IMG/VR virus record: IMGVR_UViG_3300033498_000048
Location: 128,001 to 192,000 of that record
Strand: one strand, 5' to 3'
From: a virus
Taxonomy: Duplodnaviria; Caudoviricetes
Length of the DNA stretch: 64,000 bases
Below are positions 14,240 to 60,267 of this stretch, in pieces. The notes under the pieces were generated by a model. It saw only the letters and a list, made by a program, of their open reading frames with translations, made no database searches and was not told the DNA's origin. Each line of letters opens with the position of its first letter. The stretch's first letter is position 1. The translations under genes and the position numbers were made by a program.

Positions 14240-14790
14240 AATCAATGAGTTAGCACTTACAGGTTGGTGTTAGTTATATAACTGTTCCAAGTGCTAACTC
14301 ATTGATTCGTATAGTGTAATTAATTGTTATTAACTATCAATAGGTTAGCACTTACAGACATTAAGTAATTATAGGGACGCTTCAAGAGTGTATCATTCAT
14401 TGTCAATTATTAAAATCAATGAGTTAGCACTTGCACTGGTCTTATAATTAACTAACTGTTCCAAGTGCTAACCACTTGTTTAATATACATAAAGTTAATT
14501 AGTATAACTATCAATAGGTTAGCACTTATAGACTGGTATTAGTTATATAACTGTTGCAAGTGCTAACCTATTGATAGTTGGTTGTCCAAACCATTGAGGT
14601 GTAGTTAAAAATTGGAACAAATATGTAACTAATTGTGTTGAATAGCTAAAATCAATGAGTTAGCACTTACAGCGTGGTATTAATTACTTAATTGTTCCAA
14701 GTGCTAACCTATTGATTTAATTGAGAATGGTACAAGGTAATAATATCAACGACTTAGCACTTGGACGGTGTTATTAATTATCCAAGTGCT
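14240..14790. repeat. Inverted-repeat array 1 (68-bp units; IHF-box arms)
   Basis: Complete units start at 14240, 14414, 14509 and 14650, e.g. AATCAATGAGTTAGCACTT-N30-AAGTGCTAACTCATTGATT; partial units at 14335 and 14744. Confidence 0.95.
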
Positions 14791-14824: not shown

Positions 14825-16138
14825 CTAAAGACTAATCGAACTAACTTCGTTTAAATACATTTTATTAGCTGTTGTATTCAATAACGATTTTAGTTCTTTT
14901 TCTTTGTTTTTTAATGAGGTGTTTAAATCTGCTATTTTATCTTTTGTTAGGTTGTAAATAGGCATTGATAACAACTTATCTACATTAATGAATCCATTGT
15001 TCGATAATAACTCTACCAATTGTTTTTTAGACAATTCTTTAAATGTTGTTGCATTTTCAATGTAATAATTGATAAATCGTATTTTTTCTGAAATATCTGC
15101 TATTTCAGCAGTAACTATATCAATTAACTTTAAACGTCTCAATTCATAAATGTGAAGTCGATACTTAACAAAATAATCAACAATTTCTGCTGCCGAATTA
15201 AATACTTGAAGTTTAGAATTAACATTCCACAATGTTAAGTTTTCAGTGTCTTTTGATACCAACTTAAATGTATTATAAATGGTATCAATGTCCATATTAG
15301 TAACATTCCTAGGGCATTTAATTTCAATATTAAATCCATCTTCTGAAGAATCATCATCATAATCTTTGATTACATCTGTTTCCTTCAGTTTATTAAGGAT
15401 TGTTTTAATATCATCAAGGAACATTCCAATTGGCAATTCGGTAATACTAATTGTCGTTGAATTAACAATTTCCAATTTACCTTTGAAAATCCATTGGTTT
15501 TGATTTTCACCTTTTAATATTTGTCCAATGAAATTCTTATACCAAGGAATCAACTCAATTCTAGGTGTACCATTTAATATAGCAATAATATCATTTTTTA
15601 CATCAATTGGATTATATGCTAACACTTTACTGGCATATCCAGTACCAATTCCATGTGTTCCATTAATTAATACAACTGGTAATATTGGAACATAGAACTT
15701 TGGCTCAATTTGTTGGTCATCTTCATATAGATGTTCCAATATCACATCATCTGTACTATTAAATAATGTATTAAATGATGGAGATAACTTTGTGAAAATA
15801 TACCTATGTGCTGCTGGAATTGGTGATAATCTTGAACCAAATTGCCCTATAGGTTCGAGTAAATTGATATTGTTTGAACCAGCAAAGTTTTGAGCTAAGT
15901 TACAAATAACACCACCGATTCCTGCTTCTCCGTGGTGGTAAGCTGTTTCAGCAGCAACGGATGAACACAATTGTGCTACTTTGATTTCTGTGTTGGTTCT
16001 TTTTTTACAAGTGTGGACTATTTTACGTTGTGTTATTTTTAATCCATCTATGACATTTGCAATACTCCGTTGTGAATCATATATCGTGTATGGTTTATGT
16101 TGTGTTTCAAAAAACTCATTAATTGTTATCTTTTGCAT
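14825..16138 (-). CDS. 52: Type II DNA topoisomerase, GyrA/ParC-like subunit (T4 gp52)
   Basis: DGLKITQRK, YHHGE, GQFGSR...AAHRYIF (catalytic RY), NGTHGIGTGY. Confidence 0.95.
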   Translation of the reverse strand: MQKITINEFFETQHKPYTIYDSQRSIANVIDGLKITQRKIVHTCKKRTNTEIKVAQLCSSVAAETAYHHGEAGIGGVICNLAQNFAGSNNINLLEPIGQFGSRLSPIPAAHRYIFTKLSPSFNTLFNSTDDVILEHLYEDDQQIEPKFYVPILPVVLINGTHGIGTGYASKVLAYNPIDVKNDIIAILNGTPRIELIPWYKNFIGQILKGENQNQWIFKGKLEIVNSTTISITELPIGMFLDDIKTILNKLKETDVIKDYDDDSSEDGFNIEIKCPRNVTNMDIDTIYNTFKLVSKDTENLTLWNVNSKLQVFNSAAEIVDYFVKYRLHIYELRRLKLIDIVTAEIADISEKIRFINYYIENATTFKELSKKQLVELLSNNGFINVDKLLSMPIYNLTKDKIADLNTSLKNKEKELKSLLNTTANKMYLNEVSSISL

Positions 16139-16152
16139 TTGCTTATTCCCAG

Positions 16153-18042
16153 TTATACCAACTCACTAATACCCATCCAATCTTTTCTTAGATTAGTCAT
16201 TCCCTTTTCTTTTGAAAACATTAACTTGAATGTTCCAGGAACATCGCTATCAATTCCAGTTGATACTACCATTAAATTATTATCTAATGACGTTTCATCA
16301 AAATATTCTTTCCATTCTTTTGATGTTGATGTTCCAAGTCCTTTATAATATTTAAATGTAAATCCTGTATTAGATTCTTTCCATTCATTAAATTTGTCCA
16401 GTGAATAGAAGTTAATCGACTTCTTTTTATGTTGTACCTTAACAATTGGAGTATTTAAAATACAAATGATTCCCAATTCAAATAGTTCTGGAAAAAACTT
16501 GTGAAACATATTTAATAACAATGACCTGATTTGATAACCATCAAGGTCTTGGTCCGTGGTTATGATGATTTTTCCAAACCTAATATCATTTACAGATTCA
16601 ACTTTAACTCCGAGTTGTAATCCTAATATAGTCAATATGTTTTTAAATTCAGAGTTGTTTATAACGTCTTTAATGTCCATATCAAACACATTAATTGGTT
16701 TACCTTTTAATGGAAATGCTCCATGTAATTTAGTATTCCTACCACTTAATATTCCGCTAAGAGCCGAATCACCCTCAACAAGAAATAATGAGGTTTCCAT
16801 TCTATTTTTTGATGTTGCATCGTGAAACTTTGGAACATTCTTTGGGTCATTTTTGTTAATTAGTTTACTATGTTTCCGCAATTCAGCAGCAATTGTAGCC
16901 TGTTCTTTAGCCTTTACCCAATCTAATATAGATTGAATAGCATCTAATTCCAATACTTTTTTTATGAACTTATCATCACAGACCCACTCAGTTTGATATG
17001 CCTTGGGTTCTGTAATTAATTGTTCCTTAGTTTGGCTAGAATATCTAGGTTTAGCAATACTAGCAACAATGAATAATTGTAAATGGTTTTTAATATCTGC
17101 TGGCTTTACATCAATCTTGTGTTTTTTACTAAAATGGAATTTGAGCTTTGAAACTATTTGATTGGTTACATAATCAATATGTGTTCCCCCAACAAATGTT
17201 TCTGTTCCGTTGACAAACGAAACGTGGTCAAAGCCATCGGTTGCAGATGTAACAGCAATTTTCCAAGTATCGGTTTCATCAATTGCATAATTATCACAAT
17301 ACATGGAAACATAGTTTTTATATGAATCAATTTTTATCAATTCACCGTTTAAATGTATCTTTAATTTTGGATTACATCCAGCAACATCATAAACACGTTT
17401 AACTAACCTATCGTAATTATCTTGGTCTAATGTTTCTAAATTAAAGCGTGGATAGTCTGGAATCCATGATATTTCAGTAAACCGTTTTTTTGATTTGGTT
17501 ATTACTGGCTCTGTTTTTAACCTTGAATTGTTACTGTGTGTCTGGTTAAATGAGTTAGTTCCATCTGAAGTTATAACATTAAACTCAGTTGCAAATATTG
17601 CAGTTAATGATGCACCCTCACCATTTTGACCTGCACTAAAACCATCATCCGAATCATCATCAAAATTGCTTCCAGATTTCAATTCAAATACCATTTCTGG
17701 AATCCATTGGTTGTAGTCTTTGTGTTTGACAACTGTAATTCCACCATTATCAAACACTGTAATTTTACCAGTGCCTTTATCAATAGTCACTTTGATTGTA
17801 TCTAAATGTGACCCATCTGGACGTTTAGAAAAGTCGATTGAGTTTGAAATAACTTCATCAAATACTTTTAATAGTCCAGGACAAAAAGTCAGCTCTTTCT
17901 TCACAAAATTCTTTTCAATTTGGTTGTGAATAAATGTACTTGCTGTATGTGGATTAATAGACCCGATATATCTTCCTGGTCTGTGTAAAACATGGTCTAT
18001 ATCATCCAATTTTTTAAATCGTTCTTCAATCGTTTTTAACAT
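16153..18042 (-). CDS. 39: Type II DNA topoisomerase, GyrB-like subunit (fused gp39+gp60)
   Basis: HVLHRPGRYIGS, EVISNSID GHKL box, GQNGEGA, VEGDSA, PLKGK, DQDLDG, YYKGLGTS. Confidence 0.95.
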   Translation of the reverse strand: MLKTIEERFKKLDDIDHVLHRPGRYIGSINPHTASTFIHNQIEKNFVKKELTFCPGLLKVFDEVISNSIDFSKRPDGSHLDTIKVTIDKGTGKITVFDNGGITVVKHKDYNQWIPEMVFELKSGSNFDDDSDDGFSAGQNGEGASLTAIFATEFNVITSDGTNSFNQTHSNNSRLKTEPVITKSKKRFTEISWIPDYPRFNLETLDQDNYDRLVKRVYDVAGCNPKLKIHLNGELIKIDSYKNYVSMYCDNYAIDETDTWKIAVTSATDGFDHVSFVNGTETFVGGTHIDYVTNQIVSKLKFHFSKKHKIDVKPADIKNHLQLFIVASIAKPRYSSQTKEQLITEPKAYQTEWVCDDKFIKKVLELDAIQSILDWVKAKEQATIAAELRKHSKLINKNDPKNVPKFHDATSKNRMETSLFLVEGDSALSGILSGRNTKLHGAFPLKGKPINVFDMDIKDVINNSEFKNILTILGLQLGVKVESVNDIRFGKIIITTDQDLDGYQIRSLLLNMFHKFFPELFELGIICILNTPIVKVQHKKKSINFYSLDKFNEWKESNTGFTFKYYKGLGTSTSKEWKEYFDETSLDNNLMVVSTGIDSDVPGTFKLMFSKEKGMTNLRKDWMGISELV

Positions 18043-20387: not shown

Positions 20388-20670
20388 AATCAATGACTTA
20401 GCACTTGGAACAGTTATATAATTAATACCACGATGCAAGTGCTAACCTATTGATTTTGTTATATTGTAATCATTCTCAATTAAATCAATAGGTTAGCATT
20501 TATGAGTATTGGTTAATTAGTAAAGTGTTCCAAGTGCTAACTCATTGATTTATAGTAATTGACGATAATAGCTACTATATCAACAGGTTAGCACTTACAA
20601 CTGTTATATAACTAAGACCAATCTGCAAGTGCTATCTTGTTGATTCTTAATAATTGACAAGATAGCACTT
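20388..20670. repeat. Inverted-repeat array 2
   Basis: Complete units at 20388, 20483 and 20578 (95-bp period, 30-bp cores), plus a partial arm near 20652. Confidence 0.95.
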
Positions 20671-33879: not shown

Positions 33880-34652
33880 TATCAACAGGTTAGCACTTGC
33901 AAACTGGTATTAGTTATATAACTGTTCCAAGTGCTAACTCATTGATTATGTTTAAAAATATAAAACCACCACTAATACCAGTTTGCAAGTGCTAACCTGT
34001 TGATATTGGATGACCATTCTTGTTCAATTATTAAGAATCAATAACATAGCACTTGGAACAGTTTACTAATTAACCAACACCTGTAAGTGCTAACTCATTG
34101 ATTCTTAAACATTCAGTCTAATTAGCACTCGTGGAACTGGTCTTAGTTGTATAATCGTTGCAAGTGCTAACTCATTGATATTATTAGGACACAATCATTC
34201 CGAATTAAATCAATAGGTTAGCATTTACAGATTGGTCTTAGTTATATAACCGTTGATATTTGATTACCATTCTTGTCAATTATGAAGAATCAATGAGTTA
34301 GCACTTGCAACGTGTTAGTAATTACCTAACCGTTATAAATGCTAACTAACTGTTTATTAAGCATTTTCACCATAACCTAACTAAATCAATGAGTTAGCAT
34401 TTATATGGGTGTCTTAATTATATAACGGTTGCAAGTGCTAACCTATTGATTCTTAATACCAACATAAAACTCCAGTATGGACTGATATTAACCATTACTA
34501 ATTCGTTAATATTACCAACGCTTCTAGTCAATTATTTTGAATCAATGACTTAGCACTTGGAACGGTTATATAATTAACTAACTGCTCCAAGTGCTAACTT
34601 ATTGATTTAATTGAGTTTGTGTGATTGTATATGAATCAATGAGTTAGCACTT
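33880..34652. repeat. Inverted-repeat array 3 (largest)
   Basis: Complete units at 33880, 34036, 34288, 34384 and 34540; orphan or degenerate arms at 33987, 34162, 34208 and 34634. Confidence 0.95.
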
Positions 34653-36626: not shown

Positions 36627-38108
36627 TCAATCTATTTCATCTTCAATAACATCAATTGGAACAATACTACTTCCAAATAAATTCGCAGTTGATAATTTAA
36701 AATTGTCAATTACCCATTTTTTAAATGTTGGATTGTCTAATATCGGTGTCCAAAATTCAGAACAATCCGTTTCTTTTAATCTCCATTTTTTAGCTTCAAT
36801 TTCACCTGTATCAAATACTCTTGAATACCAACCTTGGACTGGTTTAATAACAAGCCCTGATTGTAACCCTAACTCAATCAATCCAGTGTAAGTCGATAAT
36901 CCACCATCAAATTTAACTGTAATCGGAATCTTTGATTTCTCTATAACTACTCTTGATTTCTCAACATTTACCACAAAATTATGTCCAATTAATTCTGTTC
37001 CATCTTTTTCTTGTTGTCTACCGATAATGAAAATTGTATCTGCGGAATAATATGGACCCGTATTATGCGTTACAACTCCATTTTCCAAAATATAATGTTC
37101 AGCTTCATAGACTGAAATATCATAAACTGGCAATTTACCAACTATATTAATTGATTTGACAATCCTTCCACTTGTTTTACCAATATACCCATTTGTTGTA
37201 ACTGGAGTATCAATTTTTAAATTTTTTGCCTCTGTCCAACCATCAATTGTTAAAAATGAATGATTGTTTGAACAAGTGACACTATATCCATCATCAAATT
37301 GAATCTCATAACATTCTGGAATGCCAATATGTAACGTATCAGGATTCCATATTGAAGTAACAACTTTATCACCAATCGCAGTTCTAACCTGTTCACCAAC
37401 TTTAATGTTTTGTATTTCTTTAAGAGTGTTGTCCGACATTTGAAGCTTTGTTCCCGACACTAAACAACCTCCACTAACAACTGCTTTTGAATAGATTTCC
37501 TGTGTTTGATAGATGTGTGCCACGATAACACATGGAATGTTCTTTATTTTCATATATGGAGTAATAATTCTAAAAAATGATTTAATCTGTTTAGCTCTGC
37601 TCATATCAGCAACAGATTTTTCATCTTTAGCATCATCAACTTCTTTTTTGGATGCTATATTTCCGATTGAGTCCACAACAAAGATTACTTTATCACCCCG
37701 TTCAATTCCTTCTAATTGGTTTACCATATCGAACTTCAATTCTTCCAAATTCAGGATTGGAATGTGCATTACTCTTCCCATATCAATTTCCAATGAATTG
37801 AAATAGTCTTTAGAAGTACCAAACTCACAATTGTAAAACATTAATACAGACTCAGGATATTTGTCCATGTATTTTTTAGCCATTATCAGGGAAAACATTG
37901 TTTTAAATGATTTCGATGCACCTGCTAATATTGTGATTCCAGGTGAAAAGCCACCATCGACATCTCCCGATAACAAAATATCGAGAGATGGAATCCCAGT
38001 GTGTACGACTTCAGTTTGATTAAAAAACTTAGAGTCCTTTAATATTTCCGTTGCTTTAATTGTTGAATTGCTTTTCAATCTGTCCATCAAGCTTGTTTTT
38101 GTAGCCAT
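36627..38108 (-). CDS. uvsX: UvsX RecA-like recombinase containing a mini-intein
   Basis: GASKSFKT, VVDSIGN.ASKKE, KSVADMSRAK, SGG|intein|TGPYYSAD. Confidence 0.95.
   Translation of the reverse strand: MATKTSLMDRLKSNSTIKATEILKDSKFFNQTEVVHTGIPSLDILLSGDVDGGFSPGITILAGASKSFKTMFSLIMAKKYMDKYPESVLMFYNCEFGTSKDYFNSLEIDMGRVMHIPILNLEELKFDMVNQLEGIERGDKVIFVVDSIGNIASKKEVDDAKDEKSVADMSRAKQIKSFFRIITPYMKIKNIPCVIVAHIYQTQEIYSKAVVSGGCLVSGTKLQMSDNTLKEIQNIKVGEQVRTAIGDKVVTSIWNPDTLHIGIPECYEIQFDDGYSVTCSNNHSFLTIDGWTEAKNLKIDTPVTTNGYIGKTSGRIVKSINIVGKLPVYDISVYEAEHYILENGVVTHNTGPYYSADTIFIIGRQQEKDGTELIGHNFVVNVEKSRVVIEKSKIPITVKFDGGLSTYTGLIELGLQSGLVIKPVQGWYSRVFDTGEIEAKKWRLKETDCSEFWTPILDNPTFKKWVIDNFKLSTANLFGSSIVPIDVIEDEID
37062..37466 (-). 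mobile_element. Cis mini-intein in UvsX (135 aa, Cys1...His-Asn, Thr+1)
   Basis: CLVSGT (block A), TCSNNH (block B), VYDISV...VTHN|T (blocks F/G); no endonuclease domain. Confidence 0.92.
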
Positions 38109-38140: not shown

Positions 38141-39205
38141 TCATATATTGGTTTTAAATTTAATTAATGAGCTTACTGGACGTAAACTACTAACTTCTTT
38201 TTTCTTGGTCTTAGGTTTAATTATATGTTGAGGTTCAACAACTGTCAATTCAGTAGTTTGTTTACGGAATTGATTTAAGTTATTAACTTTAACTGGACTC
38301 CAATTAACTAAATTTGTAAAACTTTCCAATGGTTTTAAGAATGTTTTATTGAATTGGGTTTCTTTATCAACATATTTGTCTAATCCAAATTCCTCTAACA
38401 ATTCATCTGTAAATGCTATTGCATTATTTAATGTTGGATTTTGTTTGATTAAATATAAATATCTAACTTTCATTCCATTGGTAATTAATTGATATTCTTT
38501 ATCTAGTCCATATTTAAATAACTGATTATTGTAGGTTAGGCTAGCTTTGACTTGGACTGGAGTTCCAGACTTCCACGAAAATTTGTTTCCATGTAAACCA
38601 ACATCACTCCAACCACCAATGTCATTTACTCCAGTTGGCTTTGCTATATCATACAAATCAAGCTTAGGGTACGCAGCTTTAAATGATTTAACACGTTGCT
38701 GTAGGTCAGCCTCAGTTCCGTTTAATATTAGCTTAAAACAGGCTTCCAGTTCATTTTTGACTATATTTGGAGTGCTTGTTCGAGCTGTTTCAACACCAAC
38801 TGACTTTAATTTTGGTTCCGCATAACGGACATTTTCATTGTCCCAAACTTGTAAAATGTAGTTCTTTTTCGCTCTCCAAATACCCCTATCACAAATCACT
38901 TCACGTTTCATCTTTAGTGTATTATCAATTGCGTTTAAATAATTTGATAATATCGCAAATTTTTCATCTATAAATGGAGTAACCACTTCATCCGAAAATT
39001 TACTTAAATAGTCCACAATAGTATTAGTTGGAGTGTTTTGTGGAACAACTCTTTCTATTAAATTATTTAATTCTAAATACGAGGAATTATGTAGTAATAC
39101 CCCATTACCAAAAAAGTTGTGACAATCAGCAACTTCAATATCATATACCCATTCTTCTTGTATTCCCAATGATTCGATTGTAAAATTATTTGTTTCTACA
39201 AGCAT
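38141..39205 (-). CDS. 43: DNA polymerase gp43 C-terminal fragment preceded by split-intein IntC
   Basis: 40-aa IntC, then SSYL..., KMKREVI, WRAKKNY, KLKSVGVETARTSTP. Confidence 0.95.
   Translation of the reverse strand: MLVETNNFTIESLGIQEEWVYDIEVADCHNFFGNGVLLHNSSYLELNNLIERVVPQNTPTNTIVDYLSKFSDEVVTPFIDEKFAILSNYLNAIDNTLKMKREVICDRGIWRAKKNYILQVWDNENVRYAEPKLKSVGVETARTSTPNIVKNELEACFKLILNGTEADLQQRVKSFKAAYPKLDLYDIAKPTGVNDIGGWSDVGLHGNKFSWKSGTPVQVKASLTYNNQLFKYGLDKEYQLITNGMKVRYLYLIKQNPTLNNAIAFTDELLEEFGLDKYVDKETQFNKTFLKPLESFTNLVNWSPVKVNNLNQFRKQTTELTVVEPQHIIKPKTKKKEVSSLRPVSSLIKFKTNI
39086..39205 (-). mobile_element. Split intein C-fragment (IntC, 40 aa, ends LLHN, Ser+1)
   Basis: MLVETNNFTIESLGIQEEWVYDIEVADCHNFFGNGVLLHN|S. 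Confidence 0.93.
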
Positions 39206-40241
39206 TAATATTCTCCTGTATTCTTTTTATTTCGGTTTCAAAAAAATTGATATAATCTGTTTCCCATATTATATCTACATAATATCCCAGTGAGCGTAAA
39301 TGGTTATTTTTTATGATGTCATTATCCCATATTTGTTTTGAATTAAGGCTTTTGTTATATGGGTTTGGAGTATCACTCTCGATAAACATTTTTGGATTGG
39401 CGTGAAATACATCACCATTAAACTCTAAACAATATTTAATATCAGTAATTACAAAATCATACTTAAAATATTTAAATTGCTTAGACTCTGAAACCATAGT
39501 AGAACCAAATTCATTTTTATGTTCAGCAAAATAACAATGTTCCCTTTCGACTTCTGTTAAAATATTATCGTAAATGTTCCAACATAAATTTTGGGACATT
39601 TTAGATGCGAATGTGTGTACAGAAGAAATGTAACGGTCATATCTAATCATACCATCAAGTTCACCATACCTATTAATAAAGTTTTGAATTGTGTTAGCCT
39701 TTTTGCTACAAACATCGTTATATTTTTTAACACCATCAGTATTACCGTATTTTTCAATATAATATGGTAATACCTTTCCATTATATTTTTGTTTATCGCA
39801 ATAACTTTTCCATTTTTTATGACCTACGGTTTCACCATATCTTAAAATCATATTATCTAATGTAACAGCTCTCGATTTGTTAAACTTTAAAAAATCAAGT
39901 TCGGTCATTCCAAATTTTTCTTTTTTATATTCAAATGAATTGGTATTTGCTTGCTTATCACAATATGACTTCCACTTTTTACTACCTAATTGATTACCAT
40001 ATCTTAATATCATATTGTCCAACGTTTGGCTTTTTTTAGTTCTTAATAACAAACATCTATCTAATAAGTCATCATGTAATATATTACCATCCATAAATCC
40101 AACAATATACCCACAAATTGATTGTATGGACCAGGTATTATCTAAAAAATGTTTCTTTATTCTTAAATACTCTGATAAGTAATATTCTTTATTAACATTA
40201 CCATCTAACTTCAATTTAAAATCTTTAAAATTAACTACCAT
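39186..40241 (-). mobile_element. Free-standing homing endonuclease, Vsr-like/EDxHD-type C-terminal domain with repeated RYG/KYG motifs
   Basis: YDF...LEFNGDVFHANP...DIIKN...LGY.V.IIWETD; lies between the two polymerase halves. Confidence 0.8.
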
Positions 40242-40298
40242 GTCACTGCCTCGTGTCTGTATAAAAATATATTTATGTAGACCTGAGGCAGTGACATA

Positions 40299-42647
40299 TT
40301 ACTTCATCAACTTGATAAACTTGTCTGTACTAATAACTTCAGTTGGTTTAATTGAAATGTTTTTTCCATCACGGTTTACTATTAATGAATGGTCTGCTGT
40401 ACAAATAATTTCAGTTCCATCTACTGTAATTTTAAACAATTCTTTTTTAACTTTGTGAGCCATAACGTATTTTATTGGATTTACAACTAATTTCCCGTTA
40501 ATATCTACTCCATACGCATTTAGATTAAATACTGGTTTAACGATATTGTCAATTTCATTTTTTACTGGAATTGTATTAATTGAATCAAATAAATTCCCTA
40601 TTTTCATATCACCACAATCCATTGAAATTACCGTATCACCAACAACGGAATCTGTATCGGAATAGATGACATAATCAACTCCATTAGTTTTAAACCTAGA
40701 ATTTAAAAACTCGTTTAATCGTTTAGCAATGTATAAGATTACAAGTTGTCCAGTTAGTGTAATACCTTCCGCCATATCATTTGAAGAATATCTGAATCCA
40801 GCGTTTCCACAAGACCCATAACACGAGTTGAGTGCTAATTTTAGGGCTATTTGCATAGCTTCGTGGAATGCCGAATCAGTATATAACTTTTCCAATTCGT
40901 TCTTCAATTCAGCATCCATTAAGTTTGCTAATTTAGTAGTACCACGTTTAGACAATTCGGTTTTAATGAGTTCTATTTTTTTATCAGCAGCTATTCGCAT
41001 CGTTTTATGCGAAACACGGTCATTAAACATTTCAGTGATAATTTCTGGAATGATACCAATTTTATCTTTTGAAAACATTGCCCCATTAGCTGCCATAGCA
41101 CAATTCAGCTTTTTTAAGTGTGCTGTATCTACATTTAAATCAATTAAATCTTCCACTAAATTTCCAGTAGCAGTCTTAACTAATGTTTCATAACTCACGT
41201 TTAACATTCGCATTATTGATGGATATAATGATGTTAAATCAAATGCGACAACCCATTTATATAAACCTGGAATTGGCTCTTTAACAAATGCTCCAGCATA
41301 TCCATCACTTGATTGTTTTTGTGGAGCGGGTGGGATTTGTATTCCTTTTTTTCTAAGTGCGTTATAAACTAAACATTCCCAGTTCTTGACTTGTCCAAAT
41401 ATTTCAGATTGTTTTACTTTACACATATACGCGATTGTTAATCCAATGAAAATGTAATTTAACTTCGCGTCCAACTTTCTAGGCAACCTAACGTCTTGGG
41501 TGTTATATTCTACAAATTTATTATAAGCATACTCTTTAATGTAATTATCAATCGTGAAATAAACATCAATCAATTCATTAGCATTTAGTTTATCCAAATC
41601 AACATTTAATATGTTAATATCAAATTTAGTTGTTTGGATGTAATCTAATTCAATTGGTAATTCTTTTCCATATTGTTGTTGGACACGTTCTTTAAATCTA
41701 CCAATTTTTAATATTTCTAAATCATTGTTTGATTTTAATGCTTTTTGGGATAGTATTCCATTATATAAATTGTGTAATGAACCAAATTCTGAATAATCAA
41801 CCTTCCGTTCTGATAATTCGACTAATGCAATATTATCTAATGAATAACTCCCAAGCTTTTGGGTACTAAACTTTTTATACATTTCGATATAGTCGTATGG
41901 AGAAATACCCAATATTTTATATCCCTTTTTTAAATTATCTAATTCAATTTCGGATATAACATTTCTAGCTTTTTTGTAAAATGGACTCAATCGGTCAGCC
42001 CACTGTTTACCCAATACTTTTTTTATTCGATTGATGATATAGGGAATATCAAATTCATTAATATTGAATCCTGTTATAATATCTGGTTCTATTTTAATCC
42101 ACTCATTAACGAATGTCATTAATAAATGCCGTTCATCGTCACATTCAATATATAATTCATCTGGATTACAATGACCAGTAAATGTTTTAGTTCCAATCGT
42201 TATATAGGTTGTATTATGTGCAAACGTTGCAAGTGTGATACTTGTTACTTCATTATCAGCAACATCTGGAGGTGAATATCCAAGTACAACATCAAATGCA
42301 ACTTCAATATCAAAGTTTAAAATGTTAATCTTTGTTATATCAAACTTTATTAAATCTGGATATTCAGTTGCAATGAATTGATGTGCTAAACTTGTTTGTC
42401 CGTGTATTTGACGATAGTTTCTGTTTTTGCGAATGTACTCATTAGTTTCTTTGACACTATTGAATCGTATGCTTGATAGTTTTTCACCCATAAATCCAAT
42501 TGCATCACCTTTACCCCTGTCACTTGGTACATATAAAACAAATGGGTAATTTTCTAATATTTCAGTCTGTCTTTTTTCTCCATCAAAAAACCTATGGAAT
42601 ATCTTATTTTCTTGCACTTCAACCGATGTGTAAAACTTTTCTGGCAT
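40299..42647 (-). CDS. 43: DNA polymerase gp43 N-terminal fragment ending in split-intein IntN
   Basis: FDIEV (ExoI), GFNINEFDIPY, FDLTSLYPS (motif A), KLALNSCYG (motif B), YSDTD|S (motif C). Confidence 0.95.
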   Translation of the reverse strand: MPEKFYTSVEVQENKIFHRFFDGEKRQTEILENYPFVLYVPSDRGKGDAIGFMGEKLSSIRFNSVKETNEYIRKNRNYRQIHGQTSLAHQFIATEYPDLIKFDITKINILNFDIEVAFDVVLGYSPPDVADNEVTSITLATFAHNTTYITIGTKTFTGHCNPDELYIECDDERHLLMTFVNEWIKIEPDIITGFNINEFDIPYIINRIKKVLGKQWADRLSPFYKKARNVISEIELDNLKKGYKILGISPYDYIEMYKKFSTQKLGSYSLDNIALVELSERKVDYSEFGSLHNLYNGILSQKALKSNNDLEILKIGRFKERVQQQYGKELPIELDYIQTTKFDINILNVDLDKLNANELIDVYFTIDNYIKEYAYNKFVEYNTQDVRLPRKLDAKLNYIFIGLTIAYMCKVKQSEIFGQVKNWECLVYNALRKKGIQIPPAPQKQSSDGYAGAFVKEPIPGLYKWVVAFDLTSLYPSIMRMLNVSYETLVKTATGNLVEDLIDLNVDTAHLKKLNCAMAANGAMFSKDKIGIIPEIITEMFNDRVSHKTMRIAADKKIELIKTELSKRGTTKLANLMDAELKNELEKLYTDSAFHEAMQIALKLALNSCYGSCGNAGFRYSSNDMAEGITLTGQLVILYIAKRLNEFLNSRFKTNGVDYVIYSDTDSVVGDTVISMDCGDMKIGNLFDSINTIPVKNEIDNIVKPVFNLNAYGVDINGKLVVNPIKYVMAHKVKKELFKITVDGTEIICTADHSLIVNRDGKNISIKPTEVISTDKFIKLMK
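40302..40649 (-). mobile_element. Split intein N-fragment (IntN, 116 aa, Ser1)
   Basis: SVVGDT (block A with Ser1), CTADHS (block B T-x-x-H), stop after KFIKLMK. Confidence 0.93.
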
Positions 42648-46797: not shown

Positions 46798-48528
46798 TTA
46801 AATTGTATTTCCTTCAATCATTTTAGAATACCCATTTTCTTTTCCGAATGCTATTGTTGATTTGAACATATCGACCCATCTATCTGGTGAGTGACTAATA
46901 ACAAACACATTGATATTGTTTAATGAATTTAATAAATCAATTAAGGAACTTGTTCCATCTTCATCTAAACTACCGTCCAATATTTCATCAAAAAACAAAA
47001 CATTGCACGACATATTATTTTGCAATTTGGCAATATCTAACCACGTCATTAATATTGCTAAATCTATTCTAAACTTTTCACCTTCACTAAAATTGAAATA
47101 ACTAATTTCATCCATTCCCCTAGCCAAAATTTGTTCATTAAAGTTTTCATCTAATACAAATGTTGCAAAAAAACCCAAGGTCTTTAAATGTGAGTTTATA
47201 ATCGAATTGATTACTGGAATAAACTCTTTAATAATTGTTCGTTTTATTCCAGTATCTTTTAAAATTAAACTAGACACATCATATTGTACCGATAAATTAT
47301 CAAATTCTGATTTCTTAGCATTTAAGTTATTATATTCACAATTCAGTTTTTGTAAAGTGTTATATTCATCATCAAGATTAGTTAATTCTGGACGTGAATT
47401 TTTCTTCAAATTCATAAGCTTTTTTATTGCCTGTTCTTTCTCAGAAATTTGAAATTTAGCTTTATCTATTTTGTTTTTAATATCTTCATTTGTCAATAAT
47501 TTATTATTGATGTCTGTTAAATATGCACTTAGTCCAGTACTTTTTTCAGTCAATTCAGTTAAAGTATTATGTAATTGATTTATCTTTAAATTCAACCCTT
47601 CAACTTTATTGTACTTCGTTTCATCTGTAATGTCCTGTGAACAAGTTGGACAAATATTATTGGAATTAAAAAATGCAATATCAGATTTAACTGTTCGAGT
47701 TTTCTCTTCCAATTTAAACTTATATTCTCCAAGTGTTGATAGCTTGGATTTTGCTTTATTTAATTCGGTAATATCTACAGATATAAGCTGGTCAATCAAT
47801 ACACCAATATTAGACCTCATGTTATGTAGTTCTGATTCCATATCCTTAATATCTGTTTCAATCTTTTGAAAATGATTCTTACTTTTAGATTCATTTTCTT
47901 TTTCCATTTTTGATATATGGGATTCCATCAATGAAATTTTTTCTTTAAGTATTAAAATTTCATTTTTTAATTGATGTGATGATTCTTTTAATATAGATAC
48001 ATTATTTCTATGGACATCATTCATTAATCCAAATATATGTAATTGGAGCATATCCTCAATAAACTTTCTACGGTCATCTGTTTTTAACTGCATGAATGAA
48101 ACATATGTTGCTTTACCTAAAACTACAATTTGAGTAAAGGCATTGTAATTGAAATGCAAAATATCAGATTCCAATATTGTTTGGTAATCTCGTACAGTGG
48201 ATGATTGGTCTAATAACACACCATCTTTCCATATTTCAAAAACTTGTGGACAACCACCTCTAACAACTTTAAAGTTTACACCTTGTGTTTCAAATTCTAT
48301 TTCACAAAGTAAGCCTTTTTTATTTTTATAATTGATAATTCCAGTTTTGTTAATTTTTCTGAAAGGTTTTCCAAACAATGAATATGTCATAGCATCCAAC
48401 ATTGTTGACTTCCCACCACCATTTTTACCTTGGATTAAGGTTGTTTTATGGCGATTTAGTTCAATGTACGTCCAATCATCCCCAAAACTTAAAATGTTTT
48501 TATATCTAAGATTTTTAAAAATAATCAC
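46798..48528 (-). CDS. 46: Recombination endonuclease ATPase subunit gp46 (Rad50-like)
   Basis: GKNGGGKST, CPTC zinc hook, FSEGEK, FFDEILDGSLD. Confidence 0.95.
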   Translation of the reverse strand: MIIFKNLRYKNILSFGDDWTYIELNRHKTTLIQGKNGGGKSTMLDAMTYSLFGKPFRKINKTGIINYKNKKGLLCEIEFETQGVNFKVVRGGCPQVFEIWKDGVLLDQSSTVRDYQTILESDILHFNYNAFTQIVVLGKATYVSFMQLKTDDRRKFIEDMLQLHIFGLMNDVHRNNVSILKESSHQLKNEILILKEKISLMESHISKMEKENESKSKNHFQKIETDIKDMESELHNMRSNIGVLIDQLISVDITELNKAKSKLSTLGEYKFKLEEKTRTVKSDIAFFNSNNICPTCSQDITDETKYNKVEGLNLKINQLHNTLTELTEKSTGLSAYLTDINNKLLTNEDIKNKIDKAKFQISEKEQAIKKLMNLKKNSRPELTNLDDEYNTLQKLNCEYNNLNAKKSEFDNLSVQYDVSSLILKDTGIKRTIIKEFIPVINSIINSHLKTLGFFATFVLDENFNEQILARGMDEISYFNFSEGEKFRIDLAILMTWLDIAKLQNNMSCNVLFFDEILDGSLDEDGTSSLIDLLNSLNNINVFVISHSPDRWVDMFKSTIAFGKENGYSKMIEGNTI

Positions 48529-49598
48529 ATATCTCTCCTTGAATTATTAACTGCTTCGGTATAAATGTCAGAAAAATACAATGACAGTTTGTCCTTATTA
48601 ATGTTCACACTATCTACATTATTAATAAATTGATTTATTTTATCAATAGTTGATACTGGTTGTGGAATCACATCAACGTTTGTAGTGCCAATTAATTCTT
48701 TTACTTGTTCGCGTTCTTGTATATCAACACTATATGACACACTTGTTATTTTGTCAACAAACAAGTCCAATAGCTTCCTGTTCACAGAACTTAATGAGTT
48801 TATCATTATCTTAACTACTTTATTGTTAAATTGCTCATAATCATATCCAACAATATCAATCGAATCATTAAAATCAACAATCTCATAAACATTAATTGTA
48901 TTTTCTATAAGTTCTAATTTCATGTTCTTGGTATCTAAGATTGTAAAACCTTTTTTAACTTTGTAATCGCCCCAATTAGTTTGATTGGTATTACCAATGT
49001 ATGTGATTATTCCATTTGTAGATGGAATATGAAAATGTCCACTTAAAACCATATTAAATCTATTAAAAATTGAAGGGTCAAGTCCACTGTTACTTGGTTG
49101 TCCCCTACTAACCTCAAATGATTTAATTTCAAAGTGTCCACCAATAACATCAGCTTCAACTTTGTTTAACCAATCTATACTATCTTCATAATTACCTGAA
49201 TGAATCCAACCAATTAAACCAATTTTAATTCCATCATATTCAAACACCTTATGGTTATTAACAATTTCAATGTTTGAATATGAACCTAACAACAAATCAA
49301 TGCTATTAATCGAGCTGGTGTTTCTATAAAAAATATCGTGATTCCCGTAAATCACCTTGACATCCAACTTCAATTCGAGCATTCTATCTAAGAAGTGTTT
49401 TTTTGTATGGTGTAATATGTAAAAGTTAATATCCTTTCTACGTTCAAATATATCACCAAGCATAATAACTTTTTTTATTTTATTTTTTATAATGTATGGA
49501 AAAAACACTTTATCAAAAAACTCAACCAAGTTATTCATGTAATATGGACTATTAGACCTTGCTCCCCAATGAATATCAGTTATAAATGCAACTTTCAA
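48525..49598 (-). CDS. 47: Recombination nuclease subunit gp47 (Mre11-like)
   Basis: TDIHWG, LGDIF, GNHD, GHFE, SGHFH. Confidence 0.95.
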   Translation of the reverse strand: MKVAFITDIHWGARSNSPYYMNNLVEFFDKVFFPYIIKNKIKKVIMLGDIFERRKDINFYILHHTKKHFLDRMLELKLDVKVIYGNHDIFYRNTSSINSIDLLLGSYSNIEIVNNHKVFEYDGIKIGLIGWIHSGNYEDSIDWLNKVEADVIGGHFEIKSFEVSRGQPSNSGLDPSIFNRFNMVLSGHFHIPSTNGIITYIGNTNQTNWGDYKVKKGFTILDTKNMKLELIENTINVYEIVDFNDSIDIVGYDYEQFNNKVVKIMINSLSSVNRKLLDLFVDKITSVSYSVDIQEREQVKELIGTTNVDVIPQPVSTIDKINQFINNVDSVNINKDKLSLYFSDIYTEAVNNSRRDM

Positions 49599-51061: not shown

Positions 51062-51562
51062 ATGTCTGAACTAAAAAAAGGTACAACAGGGAATAATTAC
51101 AATCTAGCGATGGGTACGAATTATAAATTCGAGCTACATGATGCTGGAGCTGAATCCTTTAATTATTTTATTCAAGATGCTATTATTCCTGGATTAGCAA
51201 TGGGTTCAATTGAAGGTGCGTATCAAAATGAGCAAACCTTTGTTCCAGGGAATAGAATTGATTATGAACCATTTAATACCTCATTTATCGTATCTGAAGA
51301 TTTTGATAACTATTTTTTTATATATGATTGGTTACATAAAATGCGTGATATTGAAACTCCATTTAAACATACCAGAGATGGAACATTACACATTTTTAGT
51401 AACAACAAAACTTATAATTTAGAAGTTAGGTTTTTTGGTATGTTTCCAACTAGCTTAGGTGAATTATCTTTTATGAGTAATACACTTTCAACCGAGCCTT
51501 TAATCTGTATGGTATCGTTTGCATATGAATGGTTCGAGATTTACAATAAAGACAGAGTTTAG
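51062..51562 (+). CDS. 3: Tail completion/sheath stabiliser gp3 (tail-tube-like fold)
   Basis: YFIQ...IPG...VPG..IDYEPF...FIVSEDF.NY..IYDW. Confidence 0.8.
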   Translation: MSELKKGTTGNNYNLAMGTNYKFELHDAGAESFNYFIQDAIIPGLAMGSIEGAYQNEQTFVPGNRIDYEPFNTSFIVSEDFDNYFFIYDWLHKMRDIETPFKHTRDGTLHIFSNNKTYNLEVRFFGMFPTSLGELSFMSNTLSTEPLICMVSFAYEWFEIYNKDRV

Positions 51563-51598
51563 TAGTATTATCAAAGCTCATTACTGTCAATCATTACA

Positions 51599-52187
51599 AA
51601 TCAATAGGTTAGCACTTGATACCGTTAGGTAATTAATATATCGTTCCAAGTGCTAACCAGTTGATATTTGATTACATTCTTGTCAATTATTAAGAATCAA
51701 TGAGTTAGCACTTACATTGGTCTATTAATTATATAACAGTTACAACTGCTAACCTATTGATATTATTAATACTACATCACATCCAATTAAATCAATGACT
51801 TAGCACTTACAACGGTTATATAATTAATAGACCAATGCAAGTGCTAAGTCATTGATTCTTGATAACCGATATTATGTCCAACCAAGTGTTAGCTATAACT
51901 GTCAATTAAATATAAATCAATAAGTTAGCATTTGGAACAGTCTTATAATTAGTAAATGGTATCAAGTGCTAAGTCACTTGACTTAAAATGAATTAGACAA
52001 CTTCACTATTGGTTCTAAAATGATTAGAGCATTACCAATCATTCTCAATTTTAACCGATTTACCGTTGGTACTAAGAATCAATGACTTAGCACTTGCATT
52101 GGTCTGTTAATTATATAACCGTTGTAAGTGCTAACCTATTGATTTTTATTCACTGTCAATTAAATATAAATCAATAAGTTAGCATTT
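51599..52187. repeat. Inverted-repeat array 4
   Basis: Complete units at 51599, 51695, 51790, 51915 and 52077; orphan arm at 52169; a roughly 48-bp direct repeat at about 51897 and 52152. Confidence 0.95.
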
Positions 52188-52223
52188 GGAACAGTCTTAC
52201 TAATTAACCTTATGCTAATCACA

Positions 52224-52252
52224 TTGACTATTTTTTGATTCGATAATATAAT
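52224..52252 (+). promoter_or_regulatory. Sigma70-like promoter TTGACT-17-TATAAT
   Basis: Immediately after array 4, upstream of uvsY. Confidence 0.7.
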
Positions 52253-52279
52253 ATAAAATTAACTTATGGAGTTATAATA

Positions 52280-52705
52280 ATGGAATTGGAACAAATACAA
52301 ACCGAAATACAACTTGATAGTGTATTAAATGAAACTAAGCTTGATACTGAAAGTTTAAAGATTCCTATGTTACATTCAAAATGGTACAACTATTTAATAT
52401 TTGAAGCTCAGACATTAAAAAGGGTTGAACGAACATTTAACAAAGTAAAAAAGGCTAGAATTGAATATTATTTAGGGAAAGCTCCAGATGAAGTATATAA
52501 AGAACACCCTAAACCATACAATGTGTTAAAACAGGATTTAGAGTTGTATTTGAGTGCTGATGATGAATATCAAGTTCAACAAGAGTTGATAACTAACCAA
52601 CAAATCAAAATTGATTTAATTGAGCAGTTTTTAAAGCAAGTTTCGCAGCGTTCATTTAATATAAAAAACGCAATAGATTTTATGAAGTTTAAAAGTGGAT
52701 TGTGA
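52280..52705 (+). CDS. uvsY: Recombination mediator UvsY
   Basis: ESLKIPMLHSKW, EYYLGKA...VY, YL.AD, R.FNIKNAIDF.KFKSG. Confidence 0.92.
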   Translation: MELEQIQTEIQLDSVLNETKLDTESLKIPMLHSKWYNYLIFEAQTLKRVERTFNKVKKARIEYYLGKAPDEVYKEHPKPYNVLKQDLELYLSADDEYQVQQELITNQQIKIDLIEQFLKQVSQRSFNIKNAIDFMKFKSGL

Positions 52706-56674: not shown

Positions 56675-56892
56675 TGTCAACAAGTTAGCACTTAGGACAC
56701 ATTAAGTTATTCATTGTCAATTATTATAAATCAATAGGTTAGCACTTACATGGGTGTATTAATTATATAACTGTTCCAAGTGCTAACCTATTGATAGTGT
56801 TATCATTCATTATCAATTATTATAAATCAACAAGTTAGCACTTGGAACGTGTTAGTAATTACTTAATGAGTGTAAGTGCTAAGTCATTGATT
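56675..56892. repeat. Inverted-repeat array 5
   Basis: Complete units at 56729 and 56825 (96-bp period); partial arm at 56675. Confidence 0.93.
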
Positions 56893-59103: not shown

Positions 59104-60267
59104 ATGATAAGAAAAACGGTAAAAAACTTACATGGCAACGAAGTGTGGGCTGACAAAAGGTATATTTCGATTGATTGCCCTGAAGACCATTGGAAAAATA
59201 TGCCAGATTTCAAAATAAAACCATCAACTGTGTATTGTGCTATATCATTTGAGTTTGAATCACAAGATGATGTACAAACATTTGCCAATACTATAGGACA
59301 AACAATCCACCCTGGAACAAAATCAATATGGCATCCTAAATTAAATATCGGTGATTTTTCAAAAGTTAGATATGTTTCAAATCGTGAACCAGAAAATTCT
59401 ATGAAATATCCAATTTATATTCCATCTAAGGGACGACATAAAAACAGATTAACATCCGACACTCTAATCAAAATGGGTATTAAGCATTATATAGTGGTTG
59501 AAGAATCTGAATATGATTTATATCTTAAAGTATGTAATCCAGATTTTGTAACAGTATTGGTTATTCCACAAAGCTATTTTGATGAATATGAAACATTGGA
59601 CGATTTAGGGTCAACAAAATCAAAGGGACCAGGACCAGCAAGAAACTTTGCATGGGAACATTCAATTTCAATGGGACATAAACGACATTGGGTCTGTGAT
59701 GATAATGTTCAAAATTTTTATCGACTTAATAATAGCAAACGTGTTATTGTTTCAGATAGTGCGATATTTAGAGCAATGGAAGACCATGCTGATAGTTATG
59801 AAAACGTTTATATGTCTGGTCCACACTATCGTTTTTTTGTTCTTCCAAATAAAATCCGTTCTCCATTTTCAATTAATACTAGAATTTACTCTACAAACTT
59901 GATTCTAAATGATATTCCATTTAGATGGCGTGGTAGATATAATGAAGACACGATTTTATCGTTAGATATTTTAGCATCTGGGAATTGTACGTTCCAATAT
60001 TATGCGTTTTTGAGTGGTAAAGTCAAAACTCAATCGATTAAAGGTGGAAACACAGATGAGTTCTATTCAAAAGAAGGGACTAAACCGAAATCACAAATGC
60101 TAAAAGATGTTTACCCAGACATCACAGACGTGGTGTGGAAATTCAATCGGTGGCATCACATCGTTGATTATTCCAAATTTAGAGGCAACAGATTAAAAAC
60201 AAATATTGACTTTGTTCCAAATATCAGTGACAATAACTATGGAATGAAATTGGTGGAAATAAATTAA
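59104..60267 (+). CDS. GT-A glycosyltransferase of the TET-associated/GREB1-like family with an extra N-terminal domain
   Basis: YPIYIPSKGR, GPGPARNFAW, WVCDDN, WRGRYNEDT..SL..L, QSIKGGNTDEFY, RWHH.VDY. Confidence 0.75.
   Translation: MIRKTVKNLHGNEVWADKRYISIDCPEDHWKNMPDFKIKPSTVYCAISFEFESQDDVQTFANTIGQTIHPGTKSIWHPKLNIGDFSKVRYVSNREPENSMKYPIYIPSKGRHKNRLTSDTLIKMGIKHYIVVEESEYDLYLKVCNPDFVTVLVIPQSYFDEYETLDDLGSTKSKGPGPARNFAWEHSISMGHKRHWVCDDNVQNFYRLNNSKRVIVSDSAIFRAMEDHADSYENVYMSGPHYRFFVLPNKIRSPFSINTRIYSTNLILNDIPFRWRGRYNEDTILSLDILASGNCTFQYYAFLSGKVKTQSIKGGNTDEFYSKEGTKPKSQMLKDVYPDITDVVWKFNRWHHIVDYSKFRGNRLKTNIDFVPNISDNNYGMKLVEIN

Follow-up and report, generated by a model that had tools for sequence, protein, structure and literature searches.

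A distant, giant T4-like phage carries a family of short repeats in which an asymmetric core, enclosed by 19-nt arms that form an inverted repeat, is found pointing in either of two directions. This arrangement is probably the product of recurrent inversion or exchange of the core, as a spacer between the inverted-repeat arms, by phage replication and recombination, with the orientation of the core being neutral and with no dedicated invertase taking part.

The sequence analysed here, referred to as the window, is a stretch of 64,000 nucleotides that corresponds to 128001-192000 in a virus record of 305,782 bp, which possesses direct terminal repeats and is rated a 100% complete genome. The GC content of the phage genome is 31%, and its DNA polymerase is about 36% identical to the best match from an isolated phage. 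Encoded within the window are gp43 DNA polymerase, a clamp loader, gp46/47, the gp55 late sigma factor, UvsY, UvsW, and a UvsX-like recombinase. The recombination genes that enter into the interpretation of the repeats are the following.

36627..38108, minus strand: UvsX-like recombinase (phrog_97, E 2.8e-80; Pfam T4_UVSX_C on the called gene).
46798..49598, minus strand: gp46/gp47-type SbcC/SbcD-like nuclease pair (phrog_77, E 1.5e-138; phrog_100, E 6.9e-73).
52280..52705, plus strand: UvsY-like recombination mediator (phrog_231, E 7.6e-43; Pfam UvsY), adjoining a repeat array on its downstream side.

The role of the SbcC/SbcD-like pair is the processing of palindromes and DNA ends, and the UvsX-like recombinase, within the general recombination machinery, could power an exchange guided by the repeat arms. 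UvsX was recovered with PHROGs, and the Pfam RecA and endonuclease VII models had no match in the phage. The UvsX-like protein is long (493 aa), its PHROG matches fall in two separate stretches, and the called gene has a faint Pfam Intein_splicing match; an intein or some other insert may be present in it. The gene for the gp43 DNA polymerase is split (window 38141-42647, minus strand), with one ORF (40299-42647) corresponding to profile positions 7-583 of 856, another (38141-39205) to positions 581-853, and a 351-aa ORF of unknown function (39186-40241, phrog_22677) between the two pieces. Two type II topoisomerase subunits are encoded side by side at 14825-18042 on the minus strand (DNA_gyraseB/Toprim, 629 aa; DNA_topoisoIV, 437 aa), with repeat arrays on either side of the pair. 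A homologue of beta-glucosyl-HMC-alpha-glucosyltransferase lies at 59104-60267 on the plus strand (phrog_842, E 1e-49), which suggests that the phage DNA contains glucosylated hydroxymethylcytosine and that the C residues of the repeat arms may therefore be modified.

Genome-wide there are about 96 copies of the 68-bp unit, consisting of the arm AATCAATnnnTTAGCACTT, a 30-nt core, and the arm AAGTGCTAAnnnATTGATT, and these fall into 33 clusters, the most frequent start-to-start distance being 95 nt. Each arm comprises a nearly invariant 9-mer, then three variable bases, and then a 7-nt conserved outer block (AATCAAT / ATTGATT), and the midpoint of the core is TAATTA. The arm pattern lies far beyond chance: a search of the window for TTAGCACTT-N20-40-AAGTGCTAA returned 12 exact arm pairs, all with N = 30, compared to 0.00 in 100 shuffles. 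Units with a TTAGCACTT-to-AAGTGCTAA distance of exactly 48 nt, and hence a 30-nt core, were classed as regular (n = 85). All 85 are intergenic in a genome of which 86% lies under gene calls, the calls used for this count and for the strand context of the units being rough ones. The units of the window are listed here by the start of the outer arm, with plus and minus denoting the orientation of the core; individual units within arrays are designated by a coordinate 10 nt further in, as is the case throughout the text.

14240..14717: array of four full units, 14250 (plus), 14424 (minus, a weak call), 14519 (plus), and 14660 (plus), with partial arms as well.
20388..20645: array of three units at 95-nt spacing, 20398 (minus), 20493 (plus), and 20588 (minus).
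33880..33947: unit with a plus core and the rarer left arm ATCAACAGG.
33970..34005: orphan arm and half core, ACTAATACCAGTTTGC AAGTGCTAA CCTGTTGATAT, read directly in the sequence.
34036..34607: array with units 34046 (minus), 34122 (31-nt core), 34298 (plus), 34394 (plus), and 34550 (minus).
51599..51666: unit with a variant core of the TTAGGTAATTAAT type; minus, a weaker call than for most.
51695..51762: unit with a plus core that makes up an inverted repeat (81 nt, 85%) together with 51790..51857.
51790..51857: unit with perfectly palindromic arms (gac/gtc); its core, 51809-51838, is ACAACGGTTATATAATTAATAGACCAATGC, in minus orientation.
51915..51982: unit with a minus core and a degenerate right outer arm.
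52077..52144: unit whose core, 52096-52125, is GCATTGGTCTGTTAATTATATAACCGTTGT, in plus orientation.
52169..52230: truncated or degenerate unit with a left arm and half a core, the decayed right arm of which overlaps the -35 box of the uvsY promoter.
56729..56892: two units, 56739 (plus) and 56835 (plus), whose linker has a AATTGATAAT/TTGACA-like box.

The promoter-like site upstream of uvsY is TTGACT-17-TATAAT, at 52224-52252. Within the same array a 48-nt exact direct repeat (51898-51945 and 52152-52199) takes in the left part of the unit at 51915..51982. The linkers between units sort into a few types, one having AATTGACAAT and another TAATTGAG. The AATTGACAAT box, frequent in the linkers, matches a -35 element perfectly and lacks a -10 hexamer at 16-18 nt (for example at 51679-51688, 51898-51907, and 56713-56722), and the genuine promoters of the phage have the form AATTGACA-N17-TATAAT; the linker boxes may be leftovers of lost gene cassettes.

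The symmetry of the arms is most likely that of a protein-binding site, with the unit serving as a two-fold-symmetric target on double-stranded DNA. The arms resemble CIRCE half-sites, matching the CIRCE consensus at 8 of 9 positions, with a spacing of 30 bp here and 9 in CIRCE, and 134 of 170 arms match the IHF consensus WATCAANNNNTTR. An HrcA-like binder for the CIRCE-like arms was not found in the phage. As single-stranded DNA the units are predicted to adopt hairpins whose stems span 19-24 bp (energies between -13 and -22 kcal/mol, z between -5 and -10), the unit at 51790..51857 having a 19-bp stem with -20.7 kcal/mol and a z of -9.6. A selected RNA or DNA hairpin was nonetheless rejected, as the variable arm triplets do not undergo compensatory change: their Watson-Crick pairing, observed versus shuffled, is 0.44 versus 0.47, 0.55 versus 0.54, and 0.71 versus 0.64. 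A scan of the units against Rfam gave only matches to generic hairpins, far below threshold.

Between these symmetric arms the core is asymmetric. Across the 85 units, mirrored core positions agree less often than expected from column shuffling (positions 19/30, 0.09 versus 0.47; positions 17/32, 0.33 versus 0.53), a deficit indicating that every unit couples two unlike half types. A leave-one-out half-site classifier scored 73 of the 85 cores (86%) as heterotypic, with 9 'XX' and 3 'YY'. Orienting all 85 to a single profile yields the consensus GCAGCGTGTTATTAATTATATAACTGTTCC, in agreement with the asymmetric pattern xCAxxxTGGTxTTAxTTATATAACTGTTCC of a preliminary description of the window, and places 43 cores in the plus and 42 in the minus direction. 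The nine orientations given in that description, whose coordinates are outer-arm starts and so precede ours by 10 nt, were reproduced in full, with 14250, 14519, 33890, and 52087 pointing one way and 20398, 20588, 34046, 34550, and 51800 the other. The core at 51809-51838 is, as had been reported, the reverse complement of that at 52096-52125 with one mismatch (29/30). The orphan arm noted beside an inverted partial core likewise proved to be real, with 33970-34005 being the exact reverse complement of 33880-33915, which comprises the neighbouring unit's left arm and the left half of its core.

The direction of the core is unrelated to gene strand, variable arm bases, linkers, and adjacent units. 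Among the 85 units, no relation was found between core direction and gene direction, since plus and minus cores are distributed alike over flanking strands that are '--' (22/20), '++' (7/8), divergent (8/10), or convergent (6/4). When 76 confidently called units were oriented by their cores, the two sides differed at no position among the 54 compared in arms and flanks, the minimum uncorrected p being 0.047. For 167 pairs of units whose cores match at 25/30 or more, the variable bases of arms and flanks were used as tags; these agree with the direction of the core in 61 pairs, run counter to it in 62, and are evenly divided in 44, and in the 40 closest core pairs the tags likewise show no bias to follow the core. 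Adjacent units have the same orientation in 23 pairs and different orientations in 12 (p 0.09). These counts led us to reject an alternating, BIME-like pattern, and they provide no more than a hint of tandem duplication.

Cores have also moved relative to the arms that enclose them. Linker types reappear beside unrelated cores, and linkers and cores reassort freely, which places the points of exchange within the arms. The clearest case lies outside the window, where the units at genome positions 282284 and 283401 have flanks in direct order on both sides, about 55 nt on the left (the TTGACA-box linker and arm) and about 35 nt on the right (the arm and the TAATTGAG linker), and cores that are reverse complements at 29/30; here the cores must have been flipped or exchanged relative to the arms. 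This is the only discordant pair resting on long non-palindromic flanks, the others making use of 3-7 variable bases with few states; the pairs 117960/283299, 38308/38593, and 161890/291650 are weaker and depend on rare arm variants. The pair 51800/52087, singled out in the preliminary description, is ambiguous. Its inverted similarity extends over 72 nt at 94% (51789-51860 and 52074-52145) and so includes the arms and 3 nt outside them, and the right tag together with the 3 nt beyond it fits inversion of the whole unit, whereas the left tag points to reversal of the core only. The reverse-complement relationship of these two cores stands, and a core-only flip is not upheld by their conflicting arm tags. 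The more modest proposal that the arms act as recombination ends, or that the arrays are reshuffled by general recombination, is sustained as an evolutionary process by the uncoupling of cores from arm and flank bases, the reassortment of linkers, and the reversed core at 282284/283401.

Two molecular routes could give rise to this pattern. A polymerase might switch template at one arm, copy the core off the opposite strand, and return at the other arm. Polymerases are known to switch template at short perfect inverted repeats, a process that both homogenises the arms and inverts the spacer. Alternatively, gene conversion might take place between different units; because the arms are mirror images, each of the 96 units can align with any other in either register, and conversion by UvsX, UvsY, and gp46-47 would install cores either way with equal chance. 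By either route the phage's own replication together with UvsX/UvsY/gp46-47 would suffice, and a dedicated invertase would be unneeded. Both would be expected to yield a 1:1 ratio of orientations, no linkage to tags or linkers, distant clusters sharing cores, occasional homotypic cores, and partial inverted copies, and the local inverted partial copy at 33970-34005 supports a reading in terms of spacer inversion, as does the capacity of the single-stranded units to fold into hairpins. Template switching and conversion are equally good routes and are inseparable on these data. If both the orientation and the content of the core were neutral, more symmetric or decayed cores might be predicted than the 86% heterotypic set that is present, and the asymmetry may therefore be selected for an unknown reason. 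Selection by a putative binding protein may account for the persistence of the heterotypic core.

The preliminary description had gone further and raised the possibility of micro-invertible switches. Under this hypothesis a phage or host site-specific recombinase would flip each 30-bp core at its arms and thereby alter a directional function, an example being the -10-like TATAAT positioned 18 nt from the arm ATGACT. Inverted-repeat arms around an asymmetric segment seen both ways are what such a switch would present, and units with the 'gac' arm triplet reach, in one orientation, a sigma-70-like score of 10/12 (51795-51824). The -35-like part of this score, though, hinges on the variable triplet, the TGTTAGTAATTACCTAA class of cores has no TATAAT, and a conserved sigma-70 promoter in the core was rejected on these grounds, the 10/12 score belonging to a single unit. 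A late promoter was rejected as well, since the late promoter of the phage, TATAAATA, is absent from the cores; 23 of its 45 copies lie at most 80 nt upstream of gene starts, mostly at 25-45 nt. The preliminary description had also proposed a search for a tyrosine or serine recombinase or a HUH transposase. We searched the complete genome with four Pfam families (PF00589, PF00239, PF01797, and PF07282), and tyrosine recombinase, serine recombinase, Y1/HUH transposase, and TnpB were all without a match, while control genomes were matched. The known invertase segments far exceed 30 bp, the fimS segment being about 314 bp. An independent assembly in ENA is 100% identical across 18.4 kb with 12 units, so that the two assemblies agree in orientation at 12/12, as consensus sequences that record the majority orientation and in which minor forms are invisible. 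Logan contigs of SRR10915314, a run that contains the phage at 100% identity, end in or beside repeat arms (window 51860 and 52170; 14700 and 20408; 34544) and are uninformative on flips; short-read graphs break at the units, apparently because the arm sequence is common to them. Together with the lack of any relation between core and gene direction, these results make programmed switching very unlikely, and the idea of micro-invertible switches was not borne out. It is also highly improbable that flips occur frequently in each infection without an invertase, with phage replication and recombination keeping some 96 asymmetric, putative protein-binding sites in a mixed state and the direction of the core determining the polarity of a complex of protein and DNA, for example at the CIRCE-like and IHF-like arms. 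Were this so, early gene expression or recombination hot spots would be diversified across the progeny.

Two further explanations dispense with movement of the core between fixed arms. The repeats might be mobile elements of small size, akin to MITEs or REPs, that entered the genome in either direction, with orientation recording the direction of insertion rather than a later flip. In keeping with this view, the units end in inverted repeats, their copies (about 96) are dispersed and wholly intergenic, and near-identical cores (29/30) occur at distant loci with unrelated flanks, as at 162046/274850 and 118514/126963. It is nevertheless quite unlikely: target-site duplications were absent at every boundary tested, and a MITE was rejected because the 2-5 nt direct matches at five candidate boundaries are as frequent as shuffling gives; no transposase of the searched families was found; the units stand in rows of 95-nt period with common linker types; and insertion of a whole element would bring its arm tags along, from which orientation is in fact uncoupled. 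Alternatively, there may have been only old inverted duplications of whole units, with cores fixed to their arms and the tags later randomised by point mutation or arm homogenisation. The 72-nt inverted register of 51800/52087, which reaches 3 nt past the right arm, the orphan at 33970-34005 as a local inverted duplication, and the tendency of adjacent units to share an orientation all favour this explanation, which we regard as unlikely, given that the closest core pairs show no excess of core-following tags. The pair 282284/283401 speaks against both, for there the flanks and arms are direct and the core alone is reversed, and long direct linkers around an inverted core cannot be produced by duplication of whole units.

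Relatives of the repeat were sought in other genomes. Scans of IMG/VR and of metagenome contigs for the exact arms returned only unrelated sites, and none of 61 loci carrying UvsY relatives (at most 42% identity) bears the element. Several unrelated contigs of 37-42% GC (L065, L068, L071, L072, L077, and L082) contain a conserved TTAGCACTT-N30-AAGTGCTAA, for example at L068:5448-5495. This site surrounds TTGACT...TAATT between divergent genes, with a tyrosine recombinase gene about 1 kb away, and has half-sites and spacing identical to those of the phage units, with the AATCAAT outer arms absent. In a viral contig (L115:6020-6660; also L099 and L151), AAAATCAATnnnTTAnCACTTTACTTTTT is repeated upstream of three small genes; it is like one arm of the unit, is non-palindromic, and looks like a one-sided promoter motif.

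The core flips are viewed here as a further example of an already described type of event, and a working genetic switch is not supported. If recurrent spacer inversion or exchange is the correct reading, the repeats provide a clear natural case of spacer inversion at short inverted repeats, about 96-fold in one genome, and the conserved arms of an undescribed phage repeat family would be sites of DNA exchange. Arms acting in this manner would fit the idea that such motifs are joints for the shuffling of gene cassettes in T4-like phages. The repeats also call for caution, in that the presence of a segment in both orientations between inverted repeats does not amount to a switch where recombinase and directional payload are absent.

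Among known systems, Hin/Gin/Cin and fimS share with the phage units a segment found in two directions between inverted repeats. The phage differs from them in having no recombinase, no directional payload, a 30-bp segment, and about 96 copies rather than one or a few. The REP/BIME elements and associated RAYT of enterobacteria and pseudomonads are imperfect intergenic palindromes in both orientations with typed linkers, and some BIMEs contain an IHF site. Like these, the phage repeats are clustered intergenic palindromes that occur both ways and have arms resembling the IHF consensus; unlike them, they are accompanied by no Y1/HUH RAYT-type gene (PF01797), do not alternate in orientation, and lack compensatory arm changes. 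The PeSL/PmSL of T4-type phages are conserved intergenic motifs among small early genes and have been proposed as recombination points for cassette shuffling, PeSL consisting of a sigma-70 promoter (TTGACA-N17-TATAAT type) and a short G/C-rich stem-loop (PMC2839356, PMC4122927). The present units are likewise intergenic motifs of a T4-like phage for which a role as recombination points is proposed, but they have 19-nt arms conserved in sequence, a fixed 30-nt AT-rich core, and an arrangement in rows with no genes separating the units. The early promoter of PeSL (-35/-10 at 17 nt) was not found in the motif, the AATTGACAAT boxes having no -10 at 16-18 nt, and, as regards the stem-loop, no terminator-like site was found in 51400-52400.

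The closest kind of event is the inversion of spacers within inverted repeats, as in Ripley-type quasipalindromes and a survey in yeast (PMC8604942), and in the 'minute inversions' of non-coding hairpin loops in chloroplasts. In these events, as here, perfect arms of at least 9 bp enclose a spacer that becomes reverse-complemented while arms and flanks remain fixed, and the events are recurrent, reversible, and independent of a dedicated enzyme. In the yeast survey, the arms are required to be perfect inverted repeats longer than 9 bp, and the inverted spacers are 2-5 nt (PMC8604942). The phage units differ in having a spacer of 30 bp and in forming a family of about 96 copies in one phage, so that exchange between units is an equally good explanation. 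They nonetheless display the distinguishing features of spacer inversion, namely inverted-repeat arms around a short spacer, exact reversal of the core between fixed flanks (282284/283401), and an orientation unlinked to the surroundings.
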